60,705 nt of DNA from an uncultured Victivallales bacterium (lineage in GTDB: Bacteria; Verrucomicrobiota; Kiritimatiellia; UBA8416; JADHWI01), in contig CAZJBP010000001.1 of NCBI GenBank assembly GCA_964544115.1, positions 1 to 60,705 on the forward strand, given 5' to 3'. A program made the translations under genes and the position numbers. Below are positions 42,470-57,349 of this stretch, in pieces (the first letter of the stretch is position 1; each line of letters starts with the position of its first letter). Under the pieces are notes generated by a model. The model saw only the letters and a program-made list of their open reading frames with translations, was not told where the DNA came from and searched no databases.

Positions 42470-42907
42470 TCACGCAAACGGATTGCGGATCGTGAGCCGG
42501 TCGATCTTTCGGCCGTTGTCCAGATCCTCCGTCAACAGCCATCTGCACCCGGTTTCAATGGCGGCTGCGACGAGCAGCGCATCATACCACGAATACCCGG
42601 TCTCCTCGCGCACCAGCAGCGCCCGGTCGAACGTGGCCGCGCTTGGAGCGTGCTGGCAGAGCGGCGTCAGGACGCAGCGCAGGTACTCGCGCGCTTCCGT
42701 TGTCCCCATGGGTTGAGCGAACTTCCGCAGCGCTACATTCAGGAACTCCTGAACGACCTGCGTCCCGATGATTCCCCTCCGGGACTCCAGGGCATCACGC
42801 ACGAGTTTCCTGGCCAGAACCTGCTTGTCTGGGGATCCATGGTCGAACGAATAGACCAGGACGTTAGTGTCGAGGAAGAACAGCCCCTTGAGATCAGCGC
42901 CGTTCAT
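42470..42907 (-). CDS. PIN-domain toxin
   Basis: LFFLDTNVLVYSFD, VVQEFLNV, WYDALLVAAAIE and LLTEDL are PIN acidic residues. Start at MNGADL (42907). Confidence 0.8.
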   Translation of the reverse strand: MNGADLKGLFFLDTNVLVYSFDHGSPDKQVLARKLVRDALESRRGIIGTQVVQEFLNVALRKFAQPMGTTEAREYLRCVLTPLCQHAPSAATFDRALLVREETGYSWYDALLVAAAIETGCRWLLTEDLDNGRKIDRLTIRNPFA

Positions 42908-43115
42908 TGGCTTCCTCGCGCGAAAACTTCCGGCCCGCCGACACATGGGGCAGCCGACCCATCAGCGAATCGTAGGCGCTTGCCGCCGTAGGCTGCATGA
43001 CGTACGTGTTCAGCCACTGGCGGAACACGTCATTCAGAGTCTGGTGCTCCTCGGCGGCGCGTCGGCGCGCCTGCACAAGCAGCCCTTCGTCCACCGACAT
43101 CGTCACGTTCTTCAT
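42894..43115 (-). CDS. Small putative antitoxin (RHH-like) overlapping the PIN gene
   Basis: MKNVTMSVDEGLLVQARRRAAEEHQTLNDVFRQWL; 73 aa; 14-nt overlap with the downstream PIN start. Confidence 0.55.
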   Translation of the reverse strand: MKNVTMSVDEGLLVQARRRAAEEHQTLNDVFRQWLNTYVMQPTAASAYDSLMGRLPHVSAGRKFSREEANERR

Positions 43116-44265: not shown

Positions 44266-44931
44266 TCATCTCAGGCACGGCTCGATATCGAGTGCGACCG
44301 ACGAGCGCACCAGATCGGAGACCGTGTTCTGCAGGCGCTGCGCGTCGGGGGGGGGCGGCAGGTAGACGGCGATGCGTTCAGCCAGCCGGCGCTCCAGGAC
44401 GGGCGCCGGCGCGAGCAGGTCGCGCGGCACCGTCTCCGGGGCGGCGAGGGCGGCCCGGGCTTCGGCCAGCAGGCGATGGACCGACAGGCCGCAGGCGCCG
44501 GGGTGCGATCGGAACAGATTTCCGGCGCAGAGGTCGCCCAGGGCGCGCAGGTACGTTTCCGCGTGGCCGGTTCGCAGGCGCGTCTCCAGGTGGGCTTCGG
44601 TGAGCAGCAGCAGCGCGGCCGCGAACTCCACGGCCACGCGCCACTGCGCCTCGGCGTCGGCCGGTGGTGGTGCGTCGGGGGACAGGCCGTTCGTTCCGAG
44701 GACGGCCGCCGCCGCGTGCCGGGCGGAACGGTGCAGATGGTCGGCCAGCGTCAGCGGGGACGTCGTCACCTTCCCACGGGGGGACGAGTGGCGGCGGCGC
44801 TGGCGCTGGCCGTGGCGCACCTTCGCCAGGTCCACGACGCCGAATATAATCAGGCCGATAAAGAACGAGGCCAGAGCGATCAGTACCAGGGTGAAGAAGG
44901 CCCCGGCCGTGCCTATGATGGTGTCTGCCAT
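44266..44931 (-). CDS. Hypothetical single-pass membrane protein
   Basis: MADTIIGTAGAFFTLVLIALASFFIGLIIFGVV TM anchor followed by an Arg-rich stop-transfer segment. No recognisable domain; stops 21 nt upstream of the oxidoreductase start. Confidence 0.4.
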   Translation of the reverse strand: MADTIIGTAGAFFTLVLIALASFFIGLIIFGVVDLAKVRHGQRQRRRHSSPRGKVTTSPLTLADHLHRSARHAAAAVLGTNGLSPDAPPPADAEAQWRVAVEFAAALLLLTEAHLETRLRTGHAETYLRALGDLCAGNLFRSHPGACGLSVHRLLAEARAALAAPETVPRDLLAPAPVLERRLAERIAVYLPPPPDAQRLQNTVSDLVRSSVALDIEPCLR

Positions 44932-45027
44932 ATTGCACCCCGACACACCGGCGGCAGCGACGCGCTCGCCGGCGGAAGGGAGGTTAGCATGAACCCGCTC
45001 CGTGTACAGTGCTGTAGTTGATCCGGT

Positions 45028-46200
45028 TCAGCCCGCAGCCAGGACGCGCAGCCAGCGCAGGGCGAGGACAAAGAGGGCCGCGTGCGCGGCGAGGGGCAGC
45101 AGGTAGATGCGGTCCCGCGAGCGGGCAAAGGCCAGCAGCAGAAACACCGCGCCCGGCACCAGCACGCGGGCATAGCTCCACGGCTCAACCCAGACCTTGG
45201 GCGACATCACGAACGGCATCGCGGAAAAGCCCAGCAGGCCTAGGCTCACCTCGTCCCGGCGGCGGAGGACCTCGCGCAGGGCGAGCCCGGCCGCCACGCA
45301 CGCGGTTGCCACGAACAGGCCCAGAAAGAGCCGCTCCGTCAGGCTGTGCGCCGGGAGCCCGGCCCACACGTCGGCGACATGGTCCCACAGCGCTGCCAGC
45401 GGCCGGCCGAGGTTCTGCTGGCCCCCGCGCCAGGACGGCATCCCGAACCGCAGCGCCACAACCGCCTGCCACGCGGCGAACGGCCCCAGCGAGGCAGCCA
45501 GGGCGGCGGCGGAGCGGCGGTCACGCCGGCGGACGAGCGCGTCGAAGCAGAGCACCGGCGCCATGACGGCGGACGTTTCGCGCGCGAGGCAGGCCAGGGC
45601 CAGCCCCGCCGCGGCCCAGCCGGTTCGGCGGGCGGCGTAGGCCGCCATCGCCGCGGTCAGCAGGGCCGTGGCCAGCGGCTCGGACAGGTCGCGCGCCGTG
45701 GCCAGCAGCAGGCCGCTCAGCGTGGCATAGAGCAGGCCCCACCACGGGGCGAGCCCCTCACGCCGGCAGAACATGGCCGCCGCGAACACGCCGCCGGCGA
45801 TGGACAGGAGGTTCACGACGACCATCGCCCAGGGCATCCACGCCACGCGCCCCGCGGACAGCAGCGCCGTGAGCCAGGGGTAAAGAATGCGCTGGTAACG
45901 ATAGGCCGGGATGTCCATGTGGCGCGAGTACCCCCGGTTGATCCACGGATCGCAGGCCGCGAACAGGAAGAACTGTCCGTCGTACCCGTCGCTGCGCTTC
46001 ACAACGAGCACGTGATCGCGGATCTCCTGCGGCGGCCGGTAGCGGTCGCCCGCGCAGATCAGGCCGGAAACGTCGCCGCCGAAGGGAGCCACCAGGCGGG
46101 CAACGATCCCCGCGTAGAGCAAGACCGCGATGGCCGGCGCGGCCCACAGCCCGTGGTGGGCAAGACGGCGAAGCCACCGGGATGCGCGTTGGGGGTCCAT
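45028..46200 (-). CDS. Polytopic membrane protein, possibly a GT-C-like surface-glycopolymer formation protein
   Basis: Start at MDPQRAS (46200). About 9-10 TM helices. GYDGQFFLFAACDPW...DIPAYRYQRILYPWL resembles motifs of uncharacterised glycopolymer-formation membrane families (from memory, unverified). Confidence 0.5.
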   Translation of the reverse strand: MDPQRASRWLRRLAHHGLWAAPAIAVLLYAGIVARLVAPFGGDVSGLICAGDRYRPPQEIRDHVLVVKRSDGYDGQFFLFAACDPWINRGYSRHMDIPAYRYQRILYPWLTALLSAGRVAWMPWAMVVVNLLSIAGGVFAAAMFCRREGLAPWWGLLYATLSGLLLATARDLSEPLATALLTAAMAAYAARRTGWAAAGLALACLARETSAVMAPVLCFDALVRRRDRRSAAALAASLGPFAAWQAVVALRFGMPSWRGGQQNLGRPLAALWDHVADVWAGLPAHSLTERLFLGLFVATACVAAGLALREVLRRRDEVSLGLLGFSAMPFVMSPKVWVEPWSYARVLVPGAVFLLLAFARSRDRIYLLPLAAHAALFVLALRWLRVLAAG

Positions 46201-46305
46201 GGGGTCGGCAGTGTAAGGCCAGCGCCGCGCGCGCGCAACGCTGCGGCCATCTTCCGGACAAGTTGGGTGTTGCGGCCGCGGGCGCGAGCGGGTACGTTCT
46301 GGCCC

Positions 46306-46788
46306 ATGGGCTGGAACGTCCTGCATGTCAAACCGCGCCGCGAGAAGAAGGTGGCGGAGCACTGCGAGCAGCTGAAGGTCGAGCACTACCTGCCGCTGCG
46401 GCAGGAAACCAAGGTCTACCAGCGCCGCAAGGTGACGGTCTCCAAGCCGGTCTTTCCCGGTTACATCTTCGCGTCGTTTGACGACGAGGGCCGGGTGAGC
46501 CTACTCAAGACCAACTGCCTTGTGCGGATCCTGCCGTCGCCGGACGAATCCGCGCTGGTGCATGAGCTGGACCAGGTGCGCGCGGCGCTGGCGGTGGACC
46601 CGACGCTGGGCGCCACGGCGGCGATGAGGAAGGGCCGGACGGTTCGCATTGTGGGCGGCCCGTTCCGCGGCATCGAGGGCCGGATCGACATGCTCAAGGG
46701 CCAAACGATGGTGTGCCTCAACGTCGAGATGATCGGGCAGGCCATCCGGGTCGAGGTGGATCGCAGCCTGGTGGAACTGGCGGATTGA
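46306..46788 (+). CDS. NusG paralog (RfaH/UpxY-like antiterminator)
   Basis: NGN: WNVLHVKPRREKKVAEHCE...PLFPGYIF-like VFPGYIFASF. KOW: GRTVRIVGGPFRGIEGRI. 160 aa; directly upstream of rfbA. Confidence 0.8.
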   Translation: MGWNVLHVKPRREKKVAEHCEQLKVEHYLPLRQETKVYQRRKVTVSKPVFPGYIFASFDDEGRVSLLKTNCLVRILPSPDESALVHELDQVRAALAVDPTLGATAAMRKGRTVRIVGGPFRGIEGRIDMLKGQTMVCLNVEMIGQAIRVEVDRSLVELAD

Positions 46789-46809: not shown

Positions 46810-47715
46810 ATGACGAACGCGACAACGGCGAGCTGGAAGGGCATTGTGCTGGCCGGCGGGGCGGGCAGCCGGCTGCATCCCATGACGCGGACGGTCAGCA
46901 AGCAGATGCTGCCGGTCTACGACAAGCCGATGATCTATTATCCCATCGGCACGCTGATGCTCGGCGGGATCCGGGACATCCTGATCATCTCCACCCCGAC
47001 GGACCTGCCGCGCTTCCGCGAACTCCTCGGCGACGGGGCTGAACTGGGCCTGCACTTCTCCTATGCGCTGCAGACGGCGCCGCGCGGCCTGCCCGAGGCC
47101 TTTACGATCGCCGGGGATTTCCTCGCCGGCCACCCCGCGTGCCTGATCCTGGGCGACAACCTGTTCTACGGCGATCTGCAGTTCTTCCGCGAGGCCCTGA
47201 CGCACACGACCGGCGGCACGATTTTCGGCTACCCCGTGCAGGATCCCGAGCGCTACGGCGTGGTGGAGTTCGACCGCGCCGGGCGCGTGCTGAGCATCGA
47301 GGAGAAGCCGGAGAAGCCGAAGAGCCGTTACGCGATTCCCGGGCTCTACTGCTTCGACTCCCGCGTGGTCGATGTAGCGCGCAGCCTGAAGCCCTCGGTG
47401 CGCGGCGAGACGGAGATCACCGACGTCATCCGCGCCTACATGAACTGGGGCGAGCTGCGGGTGAAGAAGATGGCGCGCGGCATCGCCTGGCTCGACACCG
47501 GCACCCCGCTGAGCCTGCTCGAGGCCTCGCAGTTTGTCGCCACGGTCGAGCACCGGCAGGGGCTCAAGATCGCCTGCCTGGAAGAGGTGGCGTACCGCAT
47601 GGGCATGATCGACCTCGCGGGTTTCCGCGCGCGCGCCGCAGCGTATGCCAACAACTCCTACGGCGCCTACTTGCGCGAACTGCTGCGCGACTTCGAGGAA
47701 CACGGCGGCGCGTGA
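46810..47715 (+). CDS. rfbA: Glucose-1-phosphate thymidylyltransferase
   Basis: KGIVLAGGAGSRLHPMTRTVSKQMLPVYDKPMIYYPI, ILGDNLFYG, YGVVEFD, WLDTGT. Confidence 0.9.
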   Translation: MTNATTASWKGIVLAGGAGSRLHPMTRTVSKQMLPVYDKPMIYYPIGTLMLGGIRDILIISTPTDLPRFRELLGDGAELGLHFSYALQTAPRGLPEAFTIAGDFLAGHPACLILGDNLFYGDLQFFREALTHTTGGTIFGYPVQDPERYGVVEFDRAGRVLSIEEKPEKPKSRYAIPGLYCFDSRVVDVARSLKPSVRGETEITDVIRAYMNWGELRVKKMARGIAWLDTGTPLSLLEASQFVATVEHRQGLKIACLEEVAYRMGMIDLAGFRARAAAYANNSYGAYLRELLRDFEEHGGA

Positions 47716-47757: not shown

Positions 47758-49866
47758 TCAGCGTGCGGCCTCGCCTGGCGCGGCCTCGCCCGTGGTCCGG
47801 TGGCCGAATTTATGGGGCAGGAACAGAAACCGCCAGTAACGCTCCTTGTCGTCTCGGTAGTATTCCAGCAGCCGGTAGATCACGTTGACGTGCCGCCGTT
47901 CGCCGCCCTGCACATCCACCAGCGGCTGAAACGTGAACTGGTAGCGCCGGTCATCGCGCGCCCACCGAATCAGTCCCAGCAGGATCTTCGTCTCCCGCTC
48001 GCCATCGGGCGATTTCGTGGACCATGACAGCAGCGGCGGCAGGATTGTCCTGCCGCCGGAGTGGAGGTACAGAGGGATGACATTGAAGTAGTTGTCGCCC
48101 CACCAGACGGGCCCAGCCCCCTTGTGGCCTTTCCAGTCCCACGCAGGCGGGAGCAGCAGGATCCAGTTGTCATCCTTGCTCCAATAGACGGGGAAGACGT
48201 CGAGGTAGTTGTCGCCCCACCAGACGTTGAGAACACCGTGGTTGTCACTCCAGTTCCAGGCCGGCGGCAGGAGCAGGATCCAGTCGTCCCCGGAGCTCCA
48301 GTAGATCGGGAAGACGTCAAAGTAGTTGTCACCCCACCAGACGGGGCCAACGCCGTGGTTGCCATTCCAGTTCCACGCCGGCGGCAGGAGCAGGAGCCAG
48401 TCGTCGCCCGAGCTCCAGTAGAGCGGGAACACGTCGAGATAGTTGTCGCCCCACCAGACCGGGCCAACGCCGTAGTTGCCGTCCCAGTTCCAGGCCGGCG
48501 GCAGGAGCAGCAGCCAGTCGTCGCCGGAGCTCCAGTAGACGGGGAAAACGTGGAGATAGTCCTCGCCCCACCAGACGGGGCCTGCGCCGTGGTTGCCGTT
48601 CCAGTTCCACGCCGGCGGCAGGAGCAGGAGCCAGTCGTCGCCATAGCCCCAGTAGACGGGAAAGACGTCGAAGTAGTTCTCGCCCCACCAGACCGGGCCG
48701 ATGCCGCGGTTGCCGTGCCAGTTCCAAGTCAGGGGGATCAGCAGCCAGGTGTCATCGGTGCTCCAATAGAAGGGGAAGACATCGAAGTAGTTCTCGCTCC
48801 ACCAGACCGGGCCGATGCCATGGTGGTCTTCGACATCCCACGCCACGGGCAGCAGCAGCCAGTTGTCGTCCCACCCCCAGAACAGGGGAAACACATCGAA
48901 GTAGTTCTCGCCCCACCAGACGGGGCCAACCCCCTTGTCGCCACCCCAGTTCCACATGGGAGGGACGATCAGGAGCCAGTCATCGTTCTGGCTCCAGTAC
49001 AGCGGAAAGACATCCAGATAGTCTTCGCCCCACCAGACGGGGCCGACGCCGCGGTTGCCGTCCCAGTCCCACGCCAGCGGCAGCAGCAGCCAGTTGTCGC
49101 CGCGGCTGAAATAGAACGGGAAGACATCGACGTAGTCCTCGCCCCACCAGACGTTGAGAACGCCGTAATTCCCTTCCCAGTTCCACGCCGGCGGCAGGAG
49201 CAGAAGCCAGTCGTCGCCGGAGCTCCAGTAGACGGGGAAGACGTCGAGATAGTTGTCACCCCACCAGACGGGGCCAACGCCGTGGTTGCCGTTCCAGTTC
49301 CACGCCGGCGGCACAAGCAGGAGCCAGTCGTCTCCATAGCCCCAATAGACGGGAAAGACGTCAAAGTAGTTCTCACCCCACCAGACCGGACCGGCGCCGT
49401 GGTTGCCGTTCCAGTTCCAGGCCAGCGGAGGCACGATCCAGTTCTGGCCCTCGAACCAGACCAGCGGGGCGAAAATGAAGTAGTCCTCCCCCCACCAGAC
49501 GTTCAGGAATCCGCGGTTGCCGTTCAGATTCCAGGCCGGGGGCAGGATCAGCAGCCAGTCGTCTTCCCACGTCCAGACCAGGGGGGCCACGTGGAAGTAG
49601 TCGTTGCCCCAGATGACAGGCCCGACGTAGCGATCGAATTCATCGACCCGCTCGTGGCTGCCGATCAGCCAGAAGCACGCCATCATCTCCCGCTCGTCTT
49701 CGCTCACGGAAGTGGAATAGAAGGGCGCCCACTTGATGCCCTCCTCATAGACTTCGGCCCGTGCCGCACCTGGCGTCAGCACGAACAGGGCGACCGCCAC
49801 GGCAACGGTACGCGCGGCAACACCTCGCAGGGATCCTCTCACGACTGCACCCCCTCCCTGCAGCAC
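47758..49866 (-). CDS. Secreted Trp-rich protein with 14 tandem ~39-aa repeats of unknown family
   Basis: Signal-like N-terminus VAVAVALFVLTPGAARA. Repeat consensus G.GPVWWGENYFDVFPVYWSSGDDWLLLLPPAWNWNGNH counted 14 times. Distinct ~75-aa C-terminal tail. Confidence 0.75.
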   Translation of the reverse strand: MLQGGGAVVRGSLRGVAARTVAVAVALFVLTPGAARAEVYEEGIKWAPFYSTSVSEDEREMMACFWLIGSHERVDEFDRYVGPVIWGNDYFHVAPLVWTWEDDWLLILPPAWNLNGNRGFLNVWWGEDYFIFAPLVWFEGQNWIVPPLAWNWNGNHGAGPVWWGENYFDVFPVYWGYGDDWLLLVPPAWNWNGNHGVGPVWWGDNYLDVFPVYWSSGDDWLLLLPPAWNWEGNYGVLNVWWGEDYVDVFPFYFSRGDNWLLLPLAWDWDGNRGVGPVWWGEDYLDVFPLYWSQNDDWLLIVPPMWNWGGDKGVGPVWWGENYFDVFPLFWGWDDNWLLLPVAWDVEDHHGIGPVWWSENYFDVFPFYWSTDDTWLLIPLTWNWHGNRGIGPVWWGENYFDVFPVYWGYGDDWLLLLPPAWNWNGNHGAGPVWWGEDYLHVFPVYWSSGDDWLLLLPPAWNWDGNYGVGPVWWGDNYLDVFPLYWSSGDDWLLLLPPAWNWNGNHGVGPVWWGDNYFDVFPIYWSSGDDWILLLPPAWNWSDNHGVLNVWWGDNYLDVFPVYWSKDDNWILLLPPAWDWKGHKGAGPVWWGDNYFNVIPLYLHSGGRTILPPLLSWSTKSPDGERETKILLGLIRWARDDRRYQFTFQPLVDVQGGERRHVNVIYRLLEYYRDDKERYWRFLFLPHKFGHRTTGEAAPGEAAR
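47985..49626 (-). repeat. Intragenic ~117-bp tandem repeat array (14 units)
   Basis: Periodicity is visible at both DNA and protein level. Units 3 and 9 are almost identical in protein (GAGPVWWGENYFDVFPVYWGYGDDWLLL.PPAWNWNGNHG). Confidence 0.85.
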
Positions 49867-49924: not shown

Positions 49925-51835
49925 TCAACCCCAGTTGCCGACGTGGCGCCGGCGCACGAATTGCTCGTGCCAGATCCGCACGCCGAGGATGCCGAGGAGC
50001 AGCCGGCCCCACGCGCGCTGCCCGCGGCTGTGCTCCTCAAGCAGCCGGCGCACGCCCTCCGGCCGGAACAGCGGCGGCGTGTCGCCGCCGGCTGTGAGCA
50101 ACAGTTCGCGGGCGGGGCCCGGAAGGCCCTTGCACAGCCAGTGATCAAACGGCGAGATGAACGCAAACTTAGGGCGCCGTCGGATCGATCCCGGCAGCAC
50201 CCCGCGCATGGCACGCCGCAAGACGGTCTTCTCGCGCAGGCCGGTCATCTTCAGGGCCGGCGGGATTCCGGCGCAGAACTCCACAAAGGGGTGATCGAGG
50301 AACGGCACGCGCACTTCCAGCGAATGGGCCATGGACATGCGGTCCAGGCCGTGGATGACCGCGTCGGTCATGCGGGTCCTGAAGTCGAGGTGGAGCAGCT
50401 GATTGTGCGGATGCCACGTGGGGAAATCGTCCGGCAGCGTCAGCCGTTCATCCCCGACCGTGAGGGCGCCGGCCGCCTGCAGGAGCTCCGGGTGGATGAG
50501 GTCCCGCTCGAGTTCGGCGTGCAGCGCCGTGGGCACCGGTCCGATCCAGTGCGCGAACCGCGCAAAGCCGATGCGGGGAGCCGCGGCGAACACCTGGGCG
50601 GCCTTGGGCCAGCGCTGCCGGACCCACGGGTGGGCGGCGACCGCCGCGCGGGCGGCGGGCGGCAGGACCGAGAGGAGGCGGAGAATCTTTTCCGTGGCGT
50701 ACCAGGTGTAGCCTCCGAGCACTTCGTCGGCGCCCTCGCCGGACAGGACGACCTTGACGTGCTGCGCCGTCAGCTGCGCCAGCATCAGCCGCGGAATCTC
50801 CGTGGCGACGCCCATGGGCGCCTCCGCCCACCAGACCGCCTCGGGCATCCGCTCGAGGGCGCGGTCGGGGCACTGCAGCATGTGCGGAACGAGCCGCAGC
50901 GACGGTTCATCCAGCAGCGTCCGCTGGCCTCCGAACTCGTCGCAGTCGTGATCGGGGAAGCGGATGGAGAACGCGGGGACGGGCCGGTCGCTCGCCCGGC
51001 ACATAAGCGCCGTCACGGCGCTGGAATCGATGCCGCCGCTCAGCCACGTGCCGACCGGCACATCGCTGCGCAGGTGCAGACGCACCGATTCGGCCAGGCG
51101 CTCGCGGAACGCCTCCGCCCACTGGCGCGGGGACTGTCGCGGCTCCGCGCCGGCGGCCGGAAACCGGTATTCCCAGTAGGGCCGCACCGTCAGCCGCCCC
51201 GCCTCGTAGACGGCGAGGTGGCCGGGCGGCAGGCGCTGAACCGCCCGCAGCCCCGTGCGCGGGCCCTGCACGAAGCCGAAACGCAGCACGTCCAGGATCG
51301 CCTGCGGGGCGGCGTCCCGCGGCAGGGCCTGCACCGGGAGCAGGGATTTCACCTCCGAGGCGAAATACAGCGCATCCGCCGTCTCGGCGTAGCACAGCGG
51401 CTTGATGCCGGGACGGTCACGGGCGAGCAGCAGACGGCCGCGCCGCTCGTCCCAGACCGCCAGCCCGAACATCCCGCGGAGGTGCTCCAGGCAGGCGTCG
51501 CCGTGCTCCTCGTAGAGGTGGACGATCACCTCCGCGTCCGAATGCGTCCGAAAGAGGTGGCCCCGGGCGCAGAGCGCGGCGCGCAGCTCGATATGATTGT
51601 AAATTTCGCCGTTGCAGACGACGTGGACGAGCCCGTCCTCGGAGGCGATGGGCTGCTGCCCGCCCTCGAGGTCAATGATGCTCAGCCGCCGGAACCCGAG
51701 GCCCACGCCGGGGGCCAGGTGGAAGCCCTCGCCGTCCGGGCCGCGATGGACCGCCGCCGCCGCCATGCGCCTGAGCAGGGCCTCGTCGACAGGCGCCCGT
51801 CGATCCCGCGCAACGATTCCGCAGATGCCGCACAT
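49925..51835 (-). CDS. asnB: Glutamine-hydrolysing asparagine synthase family amidotransferase (AsnB paralog)
   Basis: Start set at MCGICGIV (Cys2 nucleophile must follow the Met). GPDGEG, SGGIDSS PP-loop; 636 aa. Confidence 0.85.
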   Translation of the reverse strand: MCGICGIVARDRRAPVDEALLRRMAAAAVHRGPDGEGFHLAPGVGLGFRRLSIIDLEGGQQPIASEDGLVHVVCNGEIYNHIELRAALCARGHLFRTHSDAEVIVHLYEEHGDACLEHLRGMFGLAVWDERRGRLLLARDRPGIKPLCYAETADALYFASEVKSLLPVQALPRDAAPQAILDVLRFGFVQGPRTGLRAVQRLPPGHLAVYEAGRLTVRPYWEYRFPAAGAEPRQSPRQWAEAFRERLAESVRLHLRSDVPVGTWLSGGIDSSAVTALMCRASDRPVPAFSIRFPDHDCDEFGGQRTLLDEPSLRLVPHMLQCPDRALERMPEAVWWAEAPMGVATEIPRLMLAQLTAQHVKVVLSGEGADEVLGGYTWYATEKILRLLSVLPPAARAAVAAHPWVRQRWPKAAQVFAAAPRIGFARFAHWIGPVPTALHAELERDLIHPELLQAAGALTVGDERLTLPDDFPTWHPHNQLLHLDFRTRMTDAVIHGLDRMSMAHSLEVRVPFLDHPFVEFCAGIPPALKMTGLREKTVLRRAMRGVLPGSIRRRPKFAFISPFDHWLCKGLPGPARELLLTAGGDTPPLFRPEGVRRLLEEHSRGQRAWGRLLLGILGVRIWHEQFVRRRHVGNWG

Positions 51836-52039
51836 GACGCGTCTGGCCTCCCGGTGGACCGGCGAGAGAATAAGGGGACGCAGCGCCCGTGTCACGCCGG
51901 GGTTGCGAGGAAGTAACGGGGCCCCTCTTCATCCTAATCTTACTCTTACTCGTAATCCCCCCCCCGCTCACGCCGCCCGCCTCCCCTCCCGCGGGTTGCG
52001 GGGACAGGTTCGCGGTTCCGGTTCGCAGTTCTCTCGTAC

Positions 52040-54070: not shown

Positions 54071-56041
54071 GTGAGAGTGCGCTCAATAAGTCGCCTTGTG
54101 ATAGGCTGCCTCGTCCTGGGGTTGAGTGCGCTTTCGGGAAGAGCGCAGGAAGATCCGGCACTGTTCCGCATTGGCAAGGGGAACTTGCTCGGGTTTATCG
54201 ATCGCGACGGTCGAACGCTCGTCGTGCCCAAGTACCAGTACGTGGACACCGCCTGGTGGGAGGGGTGTTTGTGGGTCCGGGAATCGTTTCCCTTGTGGTG
54301 GCAGGGCTTGGAGACGAACGCACCCTCCGGCAACTTCATCGGCCCTGACGGGGTGACCATATCCGCGCGGCCGCTCTCAGAGCTCGATTGTTTCCGCGAG
54401 CCCATGTTCAGGAGCGGCATCGCGTTGGTGCGGCTCTCGATGAACGATTGTGCTTACATTGACAAAGCCGGGCGCATTTTATTCCACGCGCCTCCTTGGT
54501 GTGTGGGGGTTCCTGATGATGCAGGACCGTGGGTAATGGTTGAAGACGGCAAGTTCGGTTACGCCACGCGATCAGGCAAGGTCGTGGTCCCAGCGACGTT
54601 CGACGAGTGCGGCAGCTTCACCTATGGGTTTGCGCCCGTCCGGCGGGGTTCCGAATGGGGCATCATCGACTCAGACGGGAAATGGGTATTGGAGCCCTCA
54701 TATAGTGAGATCAGGAGGGTCGAGAGCGGTCACACGTTGTTGAAGTATCGGTCGGGTATACGTTGGGGAATGCTTCGCAACGACGGCAAGGTTCTTACCG
54801 CCGCGAAGTTCGATCAGGTGGGTCACGGAGGCTATGGGGTGGTCACCGTGCGGATCGGCGACAAGTGGGGTCTGGTGACCGATGGAGGCTGTACTGTTCT
54901 GGACCCCCAGTTTGAGGGGGTGGGTACTGTGACTCCGTACGTAGTGGCGGTGTCAAAAAGCAATCTCTGGGGGCTTGTGAGCCTAGACGGGACTGTTGTC
55001 CAAGAGCCGGCGTTCAGCTCGCTGTCGATCCGTGAGGCTGGTGGGCCGTGCGTCGGTCGCATGCCTCTGGCCGGCTGTGGCGTTCTGCTTGATGAGCGTG
55101 GAAGAAGGATCACCGCGCCGGCGGCGGATGATTTCCATCTGGTGGGCAACGACAGAGCTTTCTTCAGGCAGGGCGAAAAGTGGGGGCTCATGGCGACAGC
55201 GGGAGAAGTGCTGATCGAAGCGACCTACGACGATGTTGGAGGCTTCGAGAAACACGGCTTGTTTGGTGTCGCACGCAGGCGCATGCGGGGTCTGGTTGAT
55301 ATAGTGACAGGTCGCGAAGTGTTGCCGACGACGCATGAACGCGTTGTGAGTTGGCACGAGGTAGTGCGGTGCATTGACGGCGGCACGAATTCGTTCTACA
55401 CGCGGTCTGGGTCCGTGTTGGTATCTGAAGAGGCGGGGATCACGAATGTGACAGACGCATGGCTTATGTACGATGGGTATGGCGTCATAGAGGGGAAGAC
55501 AGGGGCGGGTGTCATCTCGAAGGATGGACGCATCGTGCTGCCGATGAGGTACGAGAGAGCGGGTTTCCCCTCCGAGGATCTTGTGCCGGTTCAAGTTGGG
55601 GGGAAGTGGGGGTATGTCGATCTGCGAGGCCGTCCGGTAGTAATGCCCCGCTTTGCGGATGCGGGGAGCTTTTCCGAAGGCGTGGCGTTTGTGCGGGTCG
55701 ACGACGCGTATGGATTCATTGATCACCGAGGGGAGTTTGTAATCGCACCGAAGTACGCGGCCGCTGGTTACAGCCTGAACGGTTTGCTTCCGGTCGCCGT
55801 GCGCCGCGAAGGTGGAACGGATGCGGTATGGGGGGTGGCAGCACTCAAGTGGGGGTTGATTGACCGACAGGGAAACACCGTGCTGCCCGTCGAATATGAA
55901 GTTTTGGAATGGGGGTCGAGATCGGCGAAGAAGAAGCGGCCTTACGGGAGAATGGTTAGTCGCGAATGTTCGCGCTGGGCGGATCTGGATACCGAAGGCG
56001 GCCGGTTCCTCGTCCCTTGGATTCAGGGCGCAGTGAAGTAG
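54071..56041 (+). CDS. WG-repeat (KWG-type) secreted protein
   Basis: GTG start, signal peptide RLVIGCLVLGLSALSGRAQ. More than 10 repeats of the type KFGYATRSGKVVVPATFDECGSFTYGFAPVRRGSEWGIIDSDGKWVLEPSY. GC is visibly lower than in the flanks. Confidence 0.8.
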   Translation: MRVRSISRLVIGCLVLGLSALSGRAQEDPALFRIGKGNLLGFIDRDGRTLVVPKYQYVDTAWWEGCLWVRESFPLWWQGLETNAPSGNFIGPDGVTISARPLSELDCFREPMFRSGIALVRLSMNDCAYIDKAGRILFHAPPWCVGVPDDAGPWVMVEDGKFGYATRSGKVVVPATFDECGSFTYGFAPVRRGSEWGIIDSDGKWVLEPSYSEIRRVESGHTLLKYRSGIRWGMLRNDGKVLTAAKFDQVGHGGYGVVTVRIGDKWGLVTDGGCTVLDPQFEGVGTVTPYVVAVSKSNLWGLVSLDGTVVQEPAFSSLSIREAGGPCVGRMPLAGCGVLLDERGRRITAPAADDFHLVGNDRAFFRQGEKWGLMATAGEVLIEATYDDVGGFEKHGLFGVARRRMRGLVDIVTGREVLPTTHERVVSWHEVVRCIDGGTNSFYTRSGSVLVSEEAGITNVTDAWLMYDGYGVIEGKTGAGVISKDGRIVLPMRYERAGFPSEDLVPVQVGGKWGYVDLRGRPVVMPRFADAGSFSEGVAFVRVDDAYGFIDHRGEFVIAPKYAAAGYSLNGLLPVAVRREGGTDAVWGVAALKWGLIDRQGNTVLPVEYEVLEWGSRSAKKKRPYGRMVSRECSRWADLDTEGGRFLVPWIQGAVK

Positions 56042-56392: not shown

Positions 56393-57349
56393 TCAGACGA
56401 TCTGGCGCAACTGCCTGAAGCTGTAGATCTCGGGCCGTGAGCCGGCGGGATCCGGCGCCAGGGCTCGGGTGAGGCGTCGCCTGGCTATGGCCGCCTCGCC
56501 ACGGGCCTTGGCCAGAACGTTCTTCACGAAGAGGTCCGAGCCGATGACCAGGCCGTCAACCCAGTAGCGCACGCGGCGATCCGCGCGGATTGCAAAGGGC
56601 TGCTTCTCGGCGGCCTTCAGGGCGACGGCCTCTACGGTCTGCGGGGACGCGCCGGCCTCCACTGCCGTCTCGACAGCGATGGCGCGGCGCAGGGCTGACA
56701 GAAGGCTGTCCATGTCCTTGGCCCCAAGGCCCTCGGGCAGTGTCGGCAGCACGTGCGAAACGACGGGCTCTTCCCACGGATGCCGGCCAGCGGCCGACCA
56801 CTCGGCCAGGGTGCAGAACCGGTAGTCGGCGGGGTTTCTGACGATGCCTGCGCGTACCGGGTTGAGTTCCAGATACTTCCAGCAGTGCCAAACGGACAGA
56901 CCGCCTTCGAGGATGGTGTTTTTGAACCGCTCCTGCCAGAGGTGTCCCCGGCGGCGCACAGGACGTGTGCGGTTGAACCAGCGGGTGAACTGCTGCTGGA
57001 GGTCCTTCATGAAGCGGCTGACATCGCGCAGTTGCCCGGGCAGAGCCGCGGCCCGTTCAGTACCCACGCGCACCGTCTTCTTGCCGTCGTAGAAGGCATT
57101 GAATCGCGCCACCGCCTCCGCCTCCGGAAGCCCCTTGCCAGGGATGAACGTCAGCAGATGGAAGTGGTTGCCCATGACCTGGTAGGCGACAACCTCCACC
57201 GTGTACAGCCGCAAGAGCTTACGCATGATACAGACGAAGCACTCCTTCTCTGCCGGTCCGAAGGGGAACTCCCCCACGTGCCCACCGATCCGATTATAAA
57301 GGTGCATGAACGTGTCCACTTCCGACGGCTTGATCCTGGCCTGACGCAT
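56393..57349 (-). mobile_element. REP-associated tyrosine transposase-like (IS200/IS605 Y1 HUH superfamily) gene
   Basis: HUH motif VMGNHFHLL. RGHLWQERFKNTILE...YLELNPVRAGIVRNPADYRF (catalytic Tyr in the YxxxNP context). 318 aa with a non-catalytic C-terminal extension. Confidence 0.8.

Follow-up and report, generated by a model that had tools for sequence, protein, structure and literature searches.

Choline- and cell-wall-binding repeats (PF01473) and the glucan-binding YG repeats form beta-beta-solenoids of the LytA/CbpA type, in which three hairpins make up each superhelical turn. Aromatic residues form the ligand sites of these repeats, and the families are found mainly in Gram-positive bacteria. 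For the protein described below, the sole curated handle on its superfamily is a different entry, NF047486, the 'LA_1737 family' of Leptospira. Our analysis concerns a Trp-repeat protein encoded within a 60,705-nucleotide stretch of DNA (hereafter the window) from an uncultured Victivallales bacterium. Judged by its sequence relationships, this protein belongs to a rare branch, from the Planctomycetes-Verrucomicrobia-Chlamydiae (PVC) superphylum, of a larger superfamily of predicted exported proteins, which are often lipoproteins.

The gene and its repeat array

The Trp-repeat gene and the features discussed here are collected in Table 1. An alternative in-frame GTG at position 49842, with GGAGG 10 nt upstream, would yield a protein of 694 amino acids and appears to be the likelier start. 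GC contents of 0.62, 0.44 and 0.86 at codon positions 1, 2 and 3, respectively, match those of real genes in the window, whose overall GC content is 68%. This signature and the pattern of synonymous and non-synonymous differences between units (see below) mark the reading frame as a genuine, translated gene on which purifying selection acts. Trp alone accounts for 11.8% of the residues, and Trp, Leu, Val, Phe, Tyr and Ile together for approximately 44%, a very hydrophobic and aromatic composition. The protein ends in ...GEAAPGEAAR. A scan of the window with Rfam gave zero matches.

Table 1. Positions of the Trp-repeat gene, its parts and neighboring genes in the window.
Feature	Position	Strand	Size, motif or basis
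Trp-repeat coding sequence, complete with stop	47758..49866	minus	702 aa from GTG 49866
Signal-peptide-like N-terminus, residues 1-37	49756..49866	minus	Sequence inspection, -3/-1 rule
Conserved head, residues 38-81	49624..49755	minus	GIKWAPFY...CFWLIGSHERVDEFDRYV, ~44 aa; homologue motif
Thirteen full tandem units	48115..49623	minus	38/39 aa (114/117 nt); repeat finder, parse, HMM
Degenerate 14th unit, transition into tail	47998..48114	minus	GPVWWGDNYFNVIPLYLHSGGRTILPPLLSWSTKSPDGE; parse, unit HMM
Conserved C-terminal module, residues 624-702	47761..47997	minus	...ILLGLIRWARDDRRYQFTFQPLVDVQGGERRHVNVIYRLLEYYRDDKERYWRFLFLPHKFG..., ~80 aa; homologues, model
AsnB-type glutamine amidotransferase gene	49925-51895	minus	58 nt upstream of the Trp-repeat gene, same strand
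rfbA-like gene	46810-47715	plus	Opposite strand, converges on the Trp-repeat gene
NusG paralog	46306-46788	plus	Opposite strand, converges on the Trp-repeat gene
WG_beta_rep (PF14903) repeat protein	54071-56041	plus	4 kb from the Trp-repeat gene

An earlier note on this DNA, made from the sequence alone, had described a signal-like N-terminus, 14 tandem Trp-rich units of about 39 amino acids with 5-6 Trp each, and a distinct tail, and all of these elements are present. By inspection, the N-terminus reads MRGSLRGVAAR-TVAVAVALFVL-TPGAARA, with a basic n-region, a hydrophobic core (between the hyphens) and A-R-A before the E that follows. This arrangement fits a signal peptidase I site, and the protein is predicted to be exported by means of a Sec-type signal peptide. 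The head that follows carries the motif K-L-F/W-P-L-x-Y ... E-A-L-F-G-L-x-G-x-H, which recurs in homologues (L004-L011, P0003, P0008 and P0010), and probably caps the array at its N-terminal end.

Three approaches agree on the array itself. Tandem Repeats Finder reports a period of 117 nt with 11.7 copies, 77% matches and a score of 1334, whereas parsing of the protein yields 14 units of 38-39 amino acids (the first 13 full, the 14th degenerate), each with 5-6 Trp residues. A hidden Markov model (HMM) of the unit detects all 14, with E values of 1e-19 to 1e-25 and, for unit 14, of 1e-9. Outside the array, the same HMM matches nothing in any of the window's six frames. Each unit consists of three P-x-x-W hairpins of about 13 (12-14) amino acids, and its consensus reads GPVWW-G-x-D-YF-x-V / FPLYW-xxxx-NW-LL / LP(P)AW-x-x-x-G-x-K-G-V. 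The hallmark of every hairpin is a near-invariant Pro with a Trp three residues on: among 113 units from 19 proteins, the three Pro positions are conserved at 94% (P2), 100% (P14) and 99% (P28), and the corresponding Trp positions at 96% (W5), 96% (W17) and 93% (W31).

Some units had been called near-identical in DNA, with an array being expanded or homogenized. The mean DNA identity between units is approximately 72%, and even the closest pairs, units 3/9 (92%) and 4/10 (91%), fall short of that description. The expansion part of the claim fares better, in that units 3-4 and 9-10 resemble copies of one block of two units. Differences between the copies are mostly synonymous (6 synonymous versus 2 non-synonymous codon differences in one pair, and 6 versus 4 in the other). 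Comparison of the units thus supports growth of the array through recent duplication.

Homologues and curated families

Searches among 5.8 billion proteins returned 5 and then 62 matches, all of them 'hypothetical' or unnamed, and an exhaustive profile search gathered 754 representative clusters at E <= 1e-3. As to the taxonomic spread, which the earlier note had proposed to establish, homologues are rare, and the close ones, which come from metagenome-assembled genomes (MAGs), lie within PVC-type lineages. In GTDB, homologues occur in Lentisphaerae, Kiritimatiellia, Opitutia, Verrucomicrobia and Brocadiia. The Trp-repeat protein is 38-55% identical to its closer relatives (L002, L004-L011 and P0001-P0004), and full-length homologues carry 7, 12, 13, 15 or 19 units at a spacing of 38 amino acids. 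We define a PVC triple-hairpin subfamily by a signal peptide or lipobox, a conserved head, 38/39-aa units with the tandem signature G-P-V-W-W...F-P-L-Y-W...L-P-L-A-W, and a conserved tail that ends in W-R-h-h-E-(Y/H), an R-D-like polar pair, a few variable residues and Y-W-R-F-L-F-L-P-H-K-F-G. The Trp-repeat protein, with its predicted signal peptide, fits this definition.

At greater distances, 17 of 32 profile matches hit NF047486, several of them with scores at or above its 60-bit cut-off. Specifically, P0009, P0049 and P0086, which score 62-71 bits on NF047486, are retrieved by the profile of the window family with E values of 1e-22 to 1e-66. The C-terminal module is common to this wider superfamily, as hhalign matches it to the tails of distant relatives with a probability of 98.3% (E 1.4e-14). 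On this profile evidence, the Trp-repeat protein is homologous, at the superfamily level, to proteins that pass NF047486. Among 153 full-length superfamily members, 44 (~29%) have a lipobox and 82 have a hydrophobic N-terminus; several homologues of the Trp-repeat protein carry a lipobox in place of a signal peptidase I-type site. Every relative that is named or located comes from a bacterium with an outer membrane.

The Trp-repeat protein itself misses the 60-bit cut-off of NF047486 (the LA_1737_Cterm HMM), which gives no match to the whole protein at E <= 1 and none to unit 14 plus tail at E <= 10. The earlier note could name no family, and curated resources bear this out. Pfam was scanned with the whole protein, with a block of three units and with residues 623-702, which make up most of the tail, and NCBIfam with the whole protein and with unit 14 plus tail (residues 585-702); these scans return only noise, the best being Ig_mannosidase with an E value of 0.0012, below the cut-off. 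Sequence searches of the PDB, one with the single sequence and two with profiles, yield zero matches. No Pfam match to an outer-membrane barrel, autotransporter or T9SS sorting domain is found in the protein. We rejected a role as outer-membrane beta-barrel, autotransporter or T9SS cargo on this ground and because the predicted strands span 3-6 residues versus the at least 9 needed and the C-terminus lacks the expected final aromatic residue. At the sequence level, the choline-binding repeats do not match either: PF01473 (CW_binding_1) gives no match at E <= 1-10, and the hairpin period is 12-14 amino acids rather than approximately 20. A literature search on LA_1737, Trp-rich repeats of the PVC superphylum and hairpin-repeat lipoproteins found nothing relevant.

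Predicted structure

Two AlphaFold2 models were built. The first, of the full-length protein with an alignment of 17 rows, has a pLDDT of 46.7. The second, which covers residues 390-702 and draws on 39 alignment rows enriched in register-shifted repeat blocks, reaches a mean pLDDT of 71.5 and a pTM of 0.41, which represents moderate confidence. In this second model, each unit folds into six short strands of 3-5 residues that form three hairpins with turns of 2-4 residues, and these strands run on as one unbroken antiparallel meander. Pro turns run along one edge and Asp, Asn or Gly turns along the other. The C-terminal module is all-beta with nine strands and, at a pLDDT of approximately 90, is the most confidently predicted region. 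Trp, Tyr, Phe and Leu side chains emerge on both faces of the sheet. Because both predicted faces are hydrophobic, a simple single-layer ribbon is not the whole story, and if the model is right in this respect, then packing, oligomerization or membrane contact beyond what it resolves must be involved.

Foldseek searches of the model against the PDB and BFVD return nothing at E <= 1e-3. The sole high-probability match is the TCP10/G-box domain (probability 0.96, TM 0.29/0.18, E 0.015). The lowest E values, all above 1e-3, belong to weak matches with BamB and other propellers, with TM scores of 0.11-0.21 (~0.15). Propellers head this list because any beta-meander locally resembles propeller blades. 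The modeling and fold search that the earlier note had recommended produce no fold match in support of propellers.

Genomic context

The earlier note had placed the gene beside a co-directional asnB gene, rfbA and a NusG paralog and had taken this setting as a hint of function. The neighbors are as described, but the functional link is not borne out in other genomes. A tblastn comparison of 16 window genes, including asnB and rfbA, with approximately 8 kb around each of 12 homologue loci reveals that only the Trp-repeat gene is shared. Likewise, all-against-all clustering of neighbors finds synteny confined to very close relatives. For P0001, P0003 and the distant relative P0069, the surrounding contigs or locus are uninformative on neighborhood. 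As no neighbor is conserved family-wide, genomic context supports no particular partner. Locally, no terminator-like site is found in the 58-nt gap between asnB and the Trp-repeat gene, and co-transcription of the two is possible. Genes near the homologues, otherwise unrelated, encode a GT4 glycosyltransferase, an MBOAT acyltransferase, an MltF-like lytic transglycosylase and a CBM9 protein, and this looser envelope or glycan theme keeps the idea of a glycopolymer connection weakly alive.

Two candidate modification systems were also considered and rejected. C-mannosylation of Trp by a nearby weak GT-C-like gene was set aside because this neighbor is unconserved and scores below its Pfam cut-off. 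Radical-SAM/SPASM genes beside some homologues, which we take to be of the sulfatase-maturating type, are confined to one clade, and the idea that they modify the repeat protein was discarded for this reason.

Discussion

The best explanation overall, to which we give somewhat better than even odds, is that the Trp-repeat protein is an exported all-beta repeat protein whose hairpins form an open, capped array with a non-enzymatic role in the envelope. The hairpins would assemble into an open-ended, elongated and capped structure, either a beta-meander or a beta-beta-solenoid, and it is the openness of such an array, as opposed to a closed propeller, that would permit copy number to drift from 7 to 19. 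We tentatively picture a non-enzymatic cell-envelope protein whose long aromatic surface, if modeled correctly, might bind a repetitive envelope ligand. This ligand may most plausibly be a glycan polymer, such as peptidoglycan or an exopolysaccharide, or possibly a membrane interface, and the protein could serve as an adhesin, a scaffold or a spacer.

Two rival explanations concern the nature of the array. Metagenome and short-read assemblies can give a wrong number of tandem repeats, and one might suspect a collapsed or expanded array, or a reading frame that is no real gene. We consider this extremely unlikely: the units diverge by 8-50% in DNA (identity of at most 92%) and no exact internal repeat exceeds 44 nt, such that ordinary reads span unique differences, and the same architecture, with 12-19 units, appears in independent MAGs from five lineages. 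The codon-position and substitution patterns noted above also speak for a translated, selected gene. The earlier note had offered two closed 7-bladed beta-propellers or a long beta-solenoid for the 14 units, and only the open, solenoid-like form stays viable. That the units are propeller blades we judge very improbable, even though their period is blade-sized and propellers lead the weak Foldseek matches by E value. The unit counts of full-length homologues follow no closed-ring multiple, the model predicts with moderate confidence six strands per unit rather than four, and the TM scores to propellers are low with no E value at or below 1e-3. Furthermore, no propeller family of Pfam (WD40, PQQ, Kelch and others) matches even at E <= 1-10, and a head and tail conserved like caps are typical of open arrays.

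Two other rivals accept the array and assign it a different role. The protein might be associated with membranes or lipids, with its doubly hydrophobic, Trp-lined ribbon lying at or in a membrane interface or forming a hydrophobic groove that takes lipids or lipoproteins across the periplasm. Trp favors membrane interfaces, and this general preference, the hydrophobic composition, the 29% of superfamily members predicted to be lipoproteins, the restriction of named or located relatives to outer-membrane phyla, and the layout, in which a long beta array runs from an N-terminal anchor or signal to a conserved C-terminal module, are all in its favor. We regard it as unlikely, however, because the predicted strands, at 3-5 residues, lack the length that a transmembrane barrel or a beta-taco groove requires and Pfam matches to AsmA, TamB, DUF490 and outer-membrane barrels are absent. 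In addition, close homologues differ 2.5-fold in array length, a variation hard to reconcile with a bridge spanning the periplasm, and the Trp-repeat protein appears to have a cleavable A-x-A site and no anchor. A less probable proposal still is that the protein is a dedicated part of the surrounding glycopolymer pathway (asnB, rfbA and the NusG paralog); it could, for instance, share a transcript with the AsnB gene and bind or export an amidated sugar polymer. The closeness of co-directional asnB with no terminator-like site between, the nearby operon of the NusG paralog and rfbA, the weak GT-C-like gene and the envelope or glycan genes near other homologue loci are consistent with this proposal. 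Against it stand the 12 homologue loci that share no window neighbor, the limitation of synteny to very close relatives, and the convergent orientation of rfbA and the NusG paralog; moreover, envelope genes are common, such that their loose co-occurrence is weak evidence.

On present evidence, the Trp-repeat protein is one more hypothetical repeat protein with no link to a new mechanism. A bolder claim, which we hold to be possible but doubtful, is that the P-x-x-W triple-hairpin array represents a structurally undescribed beta architecture, a capped open stack of 13-residue, Trp-laddered hairpins that defines an envelope superfamily of outer-membrane bacteria. This superfamily, in approximately 750 clusters at 50% identity from PVC bacteria, Leptospira, Bacteroidota and Hydrogenedentes, has no Pfam model, solved structure, functional annotation or studied member; if the claim is true, its members would share an envelope role as a periplasmic or surface ruler, a scaffold or a polymer-binding fiber. 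The Trp-repeat protein would then be a near-ideal example of an unstudied repeat type and a structural handle on several hundred envelope proteins, including those of the LA_1737 type in Leptospira. Because it is short and regular, it would be a good target for crystallization or cryo-EM. Trp-ladder hairpin arrays are also of interest to protein design, for which this protein is a possible scaffold.

Comparison with known systems

The nearby WG_beta_rep protein is likewise built from repeats and has Trp-Gly motifs, but the two are unrelated: the Trp-repeat protein has no PF14903 match, and the unit HMM is silent at 54-56 kb. Beta-propellers such as BamB/PQQ and WD40 proteins share the blade-sized period and all-beta content, and BamB is periplasmic or envelope-associated, as is predicted for the Trp-repeat protein. 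They differ in having four strands per blade versus six per unit, whereas the Trp-repeat array has a variable, non-closing copy number and capped ends. The TCP10/G-box domain of CPAP (PDB 4bxr) is a single-layer hairpin sheet like the AlphaFold2 meander, and MORN-repeat proteins are among the weak BFVD matches to the model. Both are eukaryotic, cytoplasmic and not Trp-rich, and show no sequence relationship to our protein, for which the hydrophobic character of both sheet faces argues against a solvent-exposed single layer. With AsmA/TamB-like proteins, the likeness is one of outline only, namely a long beta repeat set between an N-terminal anchor and a conserved C-terminal module.

Choline-binding repeats, too, are secreted, open-ended arrays of tandem beta-hairpins rich in aromatic residues and Gly, with variable copy number, and the three-hairpin super-period of the Trp-repeat unit would fit the three hairpins per turn of the choline-binding solenoid, a left-handed superhelix. 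Their hairpins are approximately 20 amino acids long with a GW...YY pattern, in contrast to the P-x-x-W hairpins of about 13 amino acids described here.

The LA_1737 family (NF047486) belongs to the same superfamily. It is a family of Leptospira and relatives; the close Trp-repeat family is limited to the PVC superphylum. NF047486-matching relatives are mostly 1000-2000 amino acids long with super-repeats of 90-180 amino acids, and the Trp-repeat protein is distinguished from them by its regular 38/39-aa triple-hairpin unit with 5-6 Trp residues. Both groups consist of exported proteins, often lipoproteins, that are built from many short beta-hairpins rich in Pro and aromatic residues (of the F-P-L-x-W type) and end in a homologous C-terminal module (...S-x-L-W-R-x-F-E-Y...h-R-h-h-F-I-P).

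An exported protein with a Trp-rich repeat array

The ORF identified in the earlier note as encoding a secreted repeat protein is a real gene under selection. Its GC content by codon position (0.62/0.44/0.86) fits the pattern of genuine genes elsewhere in the window, which has ~68% GC. The annotated, longest-ORF start codon (GTG at 49866) has no Shine-Dalgarno sequence. Eight codons 3′ of this site, an in-frame GTG (49842) carries GGAGG 10 nt upstream and is likely the true start. Initiation there yields an N-terminus (MRGSLRGVAAR-TVAVAVALFVL-TPGAARA|EV) that on inspection reads as a textbook signal peptidase I signal, cleaner than the one obtained from 49866. Judging by eye from this signal peptide, we regard the product as exported.

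Tandem Repeats Finder reports an array with a period of 117 nt (11.7 copies, 77% matches, score 1334). The protein parses into 14 units of 38-39 aa, the last of them degenerate and the other 13 full, with five or six Trp residues per unit and a Trp content of 11.8% overall. An HMM of the unit recovers all 14 (E values of 1e-19 to 1e-25, and 1e-9 for unit 14) and finds no others in the six frames of the window. Near-identity of some units at the DNA level, as previously described, is an overstatement, because the top pairs share 92% (units 3 and 9) and 91% (units 4 and 10) identity. These pairs point to a putative duplication of a two-unit block, offset by six units; their synonymous and non-synonymous codon differences number 6 versus 2 and 6 versus 4, respectively. 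Given these identities and a longest exact repeat of 44 nt within the gene, an assembly artefact is unlikely, with the unit count here coming from the assembly alone.

Alignment of 113 units from 19 family members gives the consensus G-P-V-W-W-G-x-D-Y-F-x-V-F-P-L-Y-W-x-x-x-x-N-W-L-L-L-P-L-A-W-x-x-x-G-x-K-G-V. The conservation of P2 (94%), P14 (100%) and P28 (99%), together with W5 (96%), W17 (96%) and W31 (93%), implies that the unit comprises three sub-repeats of ~13 aa, each carrying P-x-x-W. The family norm is 38 aa; an additional Pro (LLPPAW) brings most units of the window protein to 39. The array is preceded by a head and followed by a tail.

Features of the repeat protein, its window and its homologue loci
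Feature	Position	Strand	Remarks
PIN-domain ORF	42470-42946	-	E 1.9e-11; between NUDIX and oxidoreductase genes
ORF	44266-44946	-	good coding statistics; no Pfam family
ORF	45028-46386	-	good coding statistics; no Pfam family
NusG paralog	46306-46788	+	NusG N-terminal domain; Pfam NusG E 3.3e-13
rfbA-like nucleotidyltransferase gene	46810-47715	+	21 nt after NusG paralog
Trp-rich repeat protein	47758-49866	-	702 aa (694 aa from GTG 49842)
Head	N-terminal to array		~44 aa; GIKWAPFY...CFWLIGSHE...; kept in homologues
Tail	C-terminal to array		~80 aa; ...RYQFTFQPLVDVQGGERRHVNVIYRLLEYYRDDKERYWRFLFLPHKFG; kept in homologues
AsnB	49925-51895	-	58 nt upstream of repeat protein gene
WG-repeat ORF	54071-56041	+	656 aa; eight Pfam WG_beta_rep (PF14903) repeats, E 7e-63
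IS200-like Y1 transposase ORF	56393-57349	-	weak PF01797 match, E 1.6e-6; adjoins WG-repeat gene
MltF-like lytic transglycosylase gene (SBP_bac_3 + SLT)	L008 4803-6977	+	ends 16 nt before homologue
MBOAT O-acyltransferase gene	L010 9153-10604	+	about 250 nt downstream of homologue; Brocadiia MAG
MBOAT gene homologous to that of L010	L011 15118-16569	+	about 6.3 kb downstream of homologue; Brocadiia MAG

A PVC branch of a wider superfamily

Searches of 5.8 billion clustered proteins yielded five relatives from the single sequence and 62 from a profile, all of them unnamed or "hypothetical". Homologues occur at 11 loci in GTDB species-representative genomes, sharing 37-54% identity within the segment that matches best. 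Their hosts are Lentisphaerae, Kiritimatiellia, Opitutia, other Verrucomicrobiota and Candidatus Brocadiia, which places the close family within the PVC superphylum. The number of units in full-length members ranges from 7 to 19. At L004 and L007, the longest ORF of the homologue begins with an extension of ~150 aa (L004 6516-7000 and L007 979-1450) ahead of the real signal peptide; by comparison with L005, both extensions look spurious, and translation probably starts at an internal codon in each.

When 1.84 billion cluster representatives were searched exhaustively with a profile, 754 matched at E <= 1e-3; most of these are proteins of 800-2000 aa with many matched stretches. Among 32 sampled distant matches, none has a meaningful Pfam domain and 17 match NCBIfam NF047486 ("LA_1737 family protein", Leptospira), with P0009, P0049 and P0086 scoring above its 60-bit cut-off. 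The window protein does not match NF047486. Its C-terminal module aligns with the tails of the distant relatives (hhalign probability 98.3%, E 1.4e-14, 73 columns), by which we judge the two homologous. The protein belongs to a branch, found in the PVC superphylum, of a superfamily that is uncurated and has the LA_1737 family as a relative. Named sources of this superfamily include Bacteroidota (Williamwhitmania), Hydrogenedentes and Planctomycetes. A lipobox is present in 44 of 153 full-length members, and a hydrophobic, signal-like N-terminus in 82. In one distant subgroup (P0022, P0024, P0064, P0069, P0070, P0083, P0085 and P0087), a conserved motif resembling MKGTPFYTGEY follows the lipobox, either directly or after a few residues, which suggests a distinct N-terminal module of lipoprotein members. 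Sequence and profile searches of the PDB gave no solved structure for any superfamily member, and a literature search found nothing on it.

An open array of hairpins is favored over closed propellers

A full-length AlphaFold2 model from 17 sequences was poor (pLDDT 46.7) except at the tail. A second model, of residues 390-702, used a 39-row alignment that took in register-shifted repeat blocks, drawn from the window protein as well as from homologues in the databases (pLDDT 71.5, pTM 0.41). This model is all-beta, with six strands of 3-5 residues per unit joined by turns of 2-4 residues, and would arrange each unit as three hairpins. The turn inside each hairpin is polar (x-D/N, G-D, N-G), and the conserved Pro residues fall in the turns that link one hairpin to the next. 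The tail is modelled as nine short strands (pLDDT about 90). The predicted sheet is hydrophobic on both faces, which, if the model holds, must be buried by coiling, sandwiching, oligomerisation or a membrane.

The earlier note proposed that 14 units would fit two 7-bladed propellers, a reading that we abandon. Copy number differs among homologues, units have six strands rather than four, and the head and tail are conserved in the manner of terminal caps. Foldseek found no match to the model in the PDB or BFVD at E <= 1e-3; BamB-type propellers rank first in no more than a nominal sense (TM about 0.15). The sole high-probability match (0.96) is the TCP10/G-box domain (4bxr), a single-layer hairpin sheet, but at a TM of 0.29. 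The copy number, strand count and caps, together with the lack of a structural match to propellers, speak for a capped array of hairpins with open ends.

Genomic context and possible role

The neighbors were accurately described in the earlier note as AsnB, rfbA and a NusG paralog. No terminator-like site was found in the 58 nt separating AsnB from the repeat protein gene. The NusG paralog (with a weak KOW match, below the Pfam cut-off) and the rfbA-like gene converge on its 3′ end. This pair is arranged like a polysaccharide operon that carries an antiterminator of its own; in a mechanical ORF list, the NusG paralog is hidden within a longer spurious ORF (45346-46788). The two ORFs lacking a Pfam family sit between the gene for a GFO/IDH/MocA oxidoreductase and this pair, and the longer matches GT-C mannosyltransferases of the GT22/Alg9 type, though below threshold (E 0.0019). 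The PIN-domain ORF is possibly a toxin-antitoxin element. The WG-repeat protein is a second repeat protein nearby, unrelated to the first. Its gene occupies a 2-kb stretch of 0.60 GC, versus about 0.68, with strong GC skew (+0.24); the compositional shift and transposase match hint at a small acquired segment.

The functional tie to this glycan locus does not survive comparison. When 16 window genes were compared by tblastn with 12 homologue loci, only the repeat protein itself was recovered, with the single exception of an oxidoreductase (GFO/IDH/MocA) match in L008 at 23% identity. Neighbor clustering confines synteny to very close relatives, and immediate neighbors elsewhere are heterogeneous, including, besides those tabulated, a CAAX-protease/PDZ protein alongside the MBOAT acyltransferase and, separately, a DUF4838/CBM9 protein. 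That several are envelope or glycan genes is mildly suggestive, far from a conserved system. At L003, L004 (8871-12145), L005 and L007, one or two radical-SAM/SPASM genes and a GT4 glycosyltransferase gene lie downstream on the same strand, an arrangement limited to one clade (MAGs labelled Verrucomicrobia (two), Kiritimatiellia (one) and Opitutia (one)).

We favor the view that this head, array and tail protein made of P-x-x-W hairpins serves in the envelope as a non-enzymatic binder or scaffold, given its export signal, the frequent lipoprotein forms and analogy with the choline-binding, cell-wall-binding and glucan-binding repeats, which are likewise secreted aromatic hairpin repeats. Its ligand would be a repetitive polymer or, possibly, a membrane interface. 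Glycan binding specifically is less likely than not, and a membrane or lipid role is slightly less likely again.

On present evidence, the protein is a clean and unusually regular variant of a superfamily already catalogued, yet unstudied, rather than a system of a new kind. Its interest lies in a possibly new hairpin-array architecture without PDB or Pfam representation, and in a family of envelope proteins restricted to the PVC superphylum.
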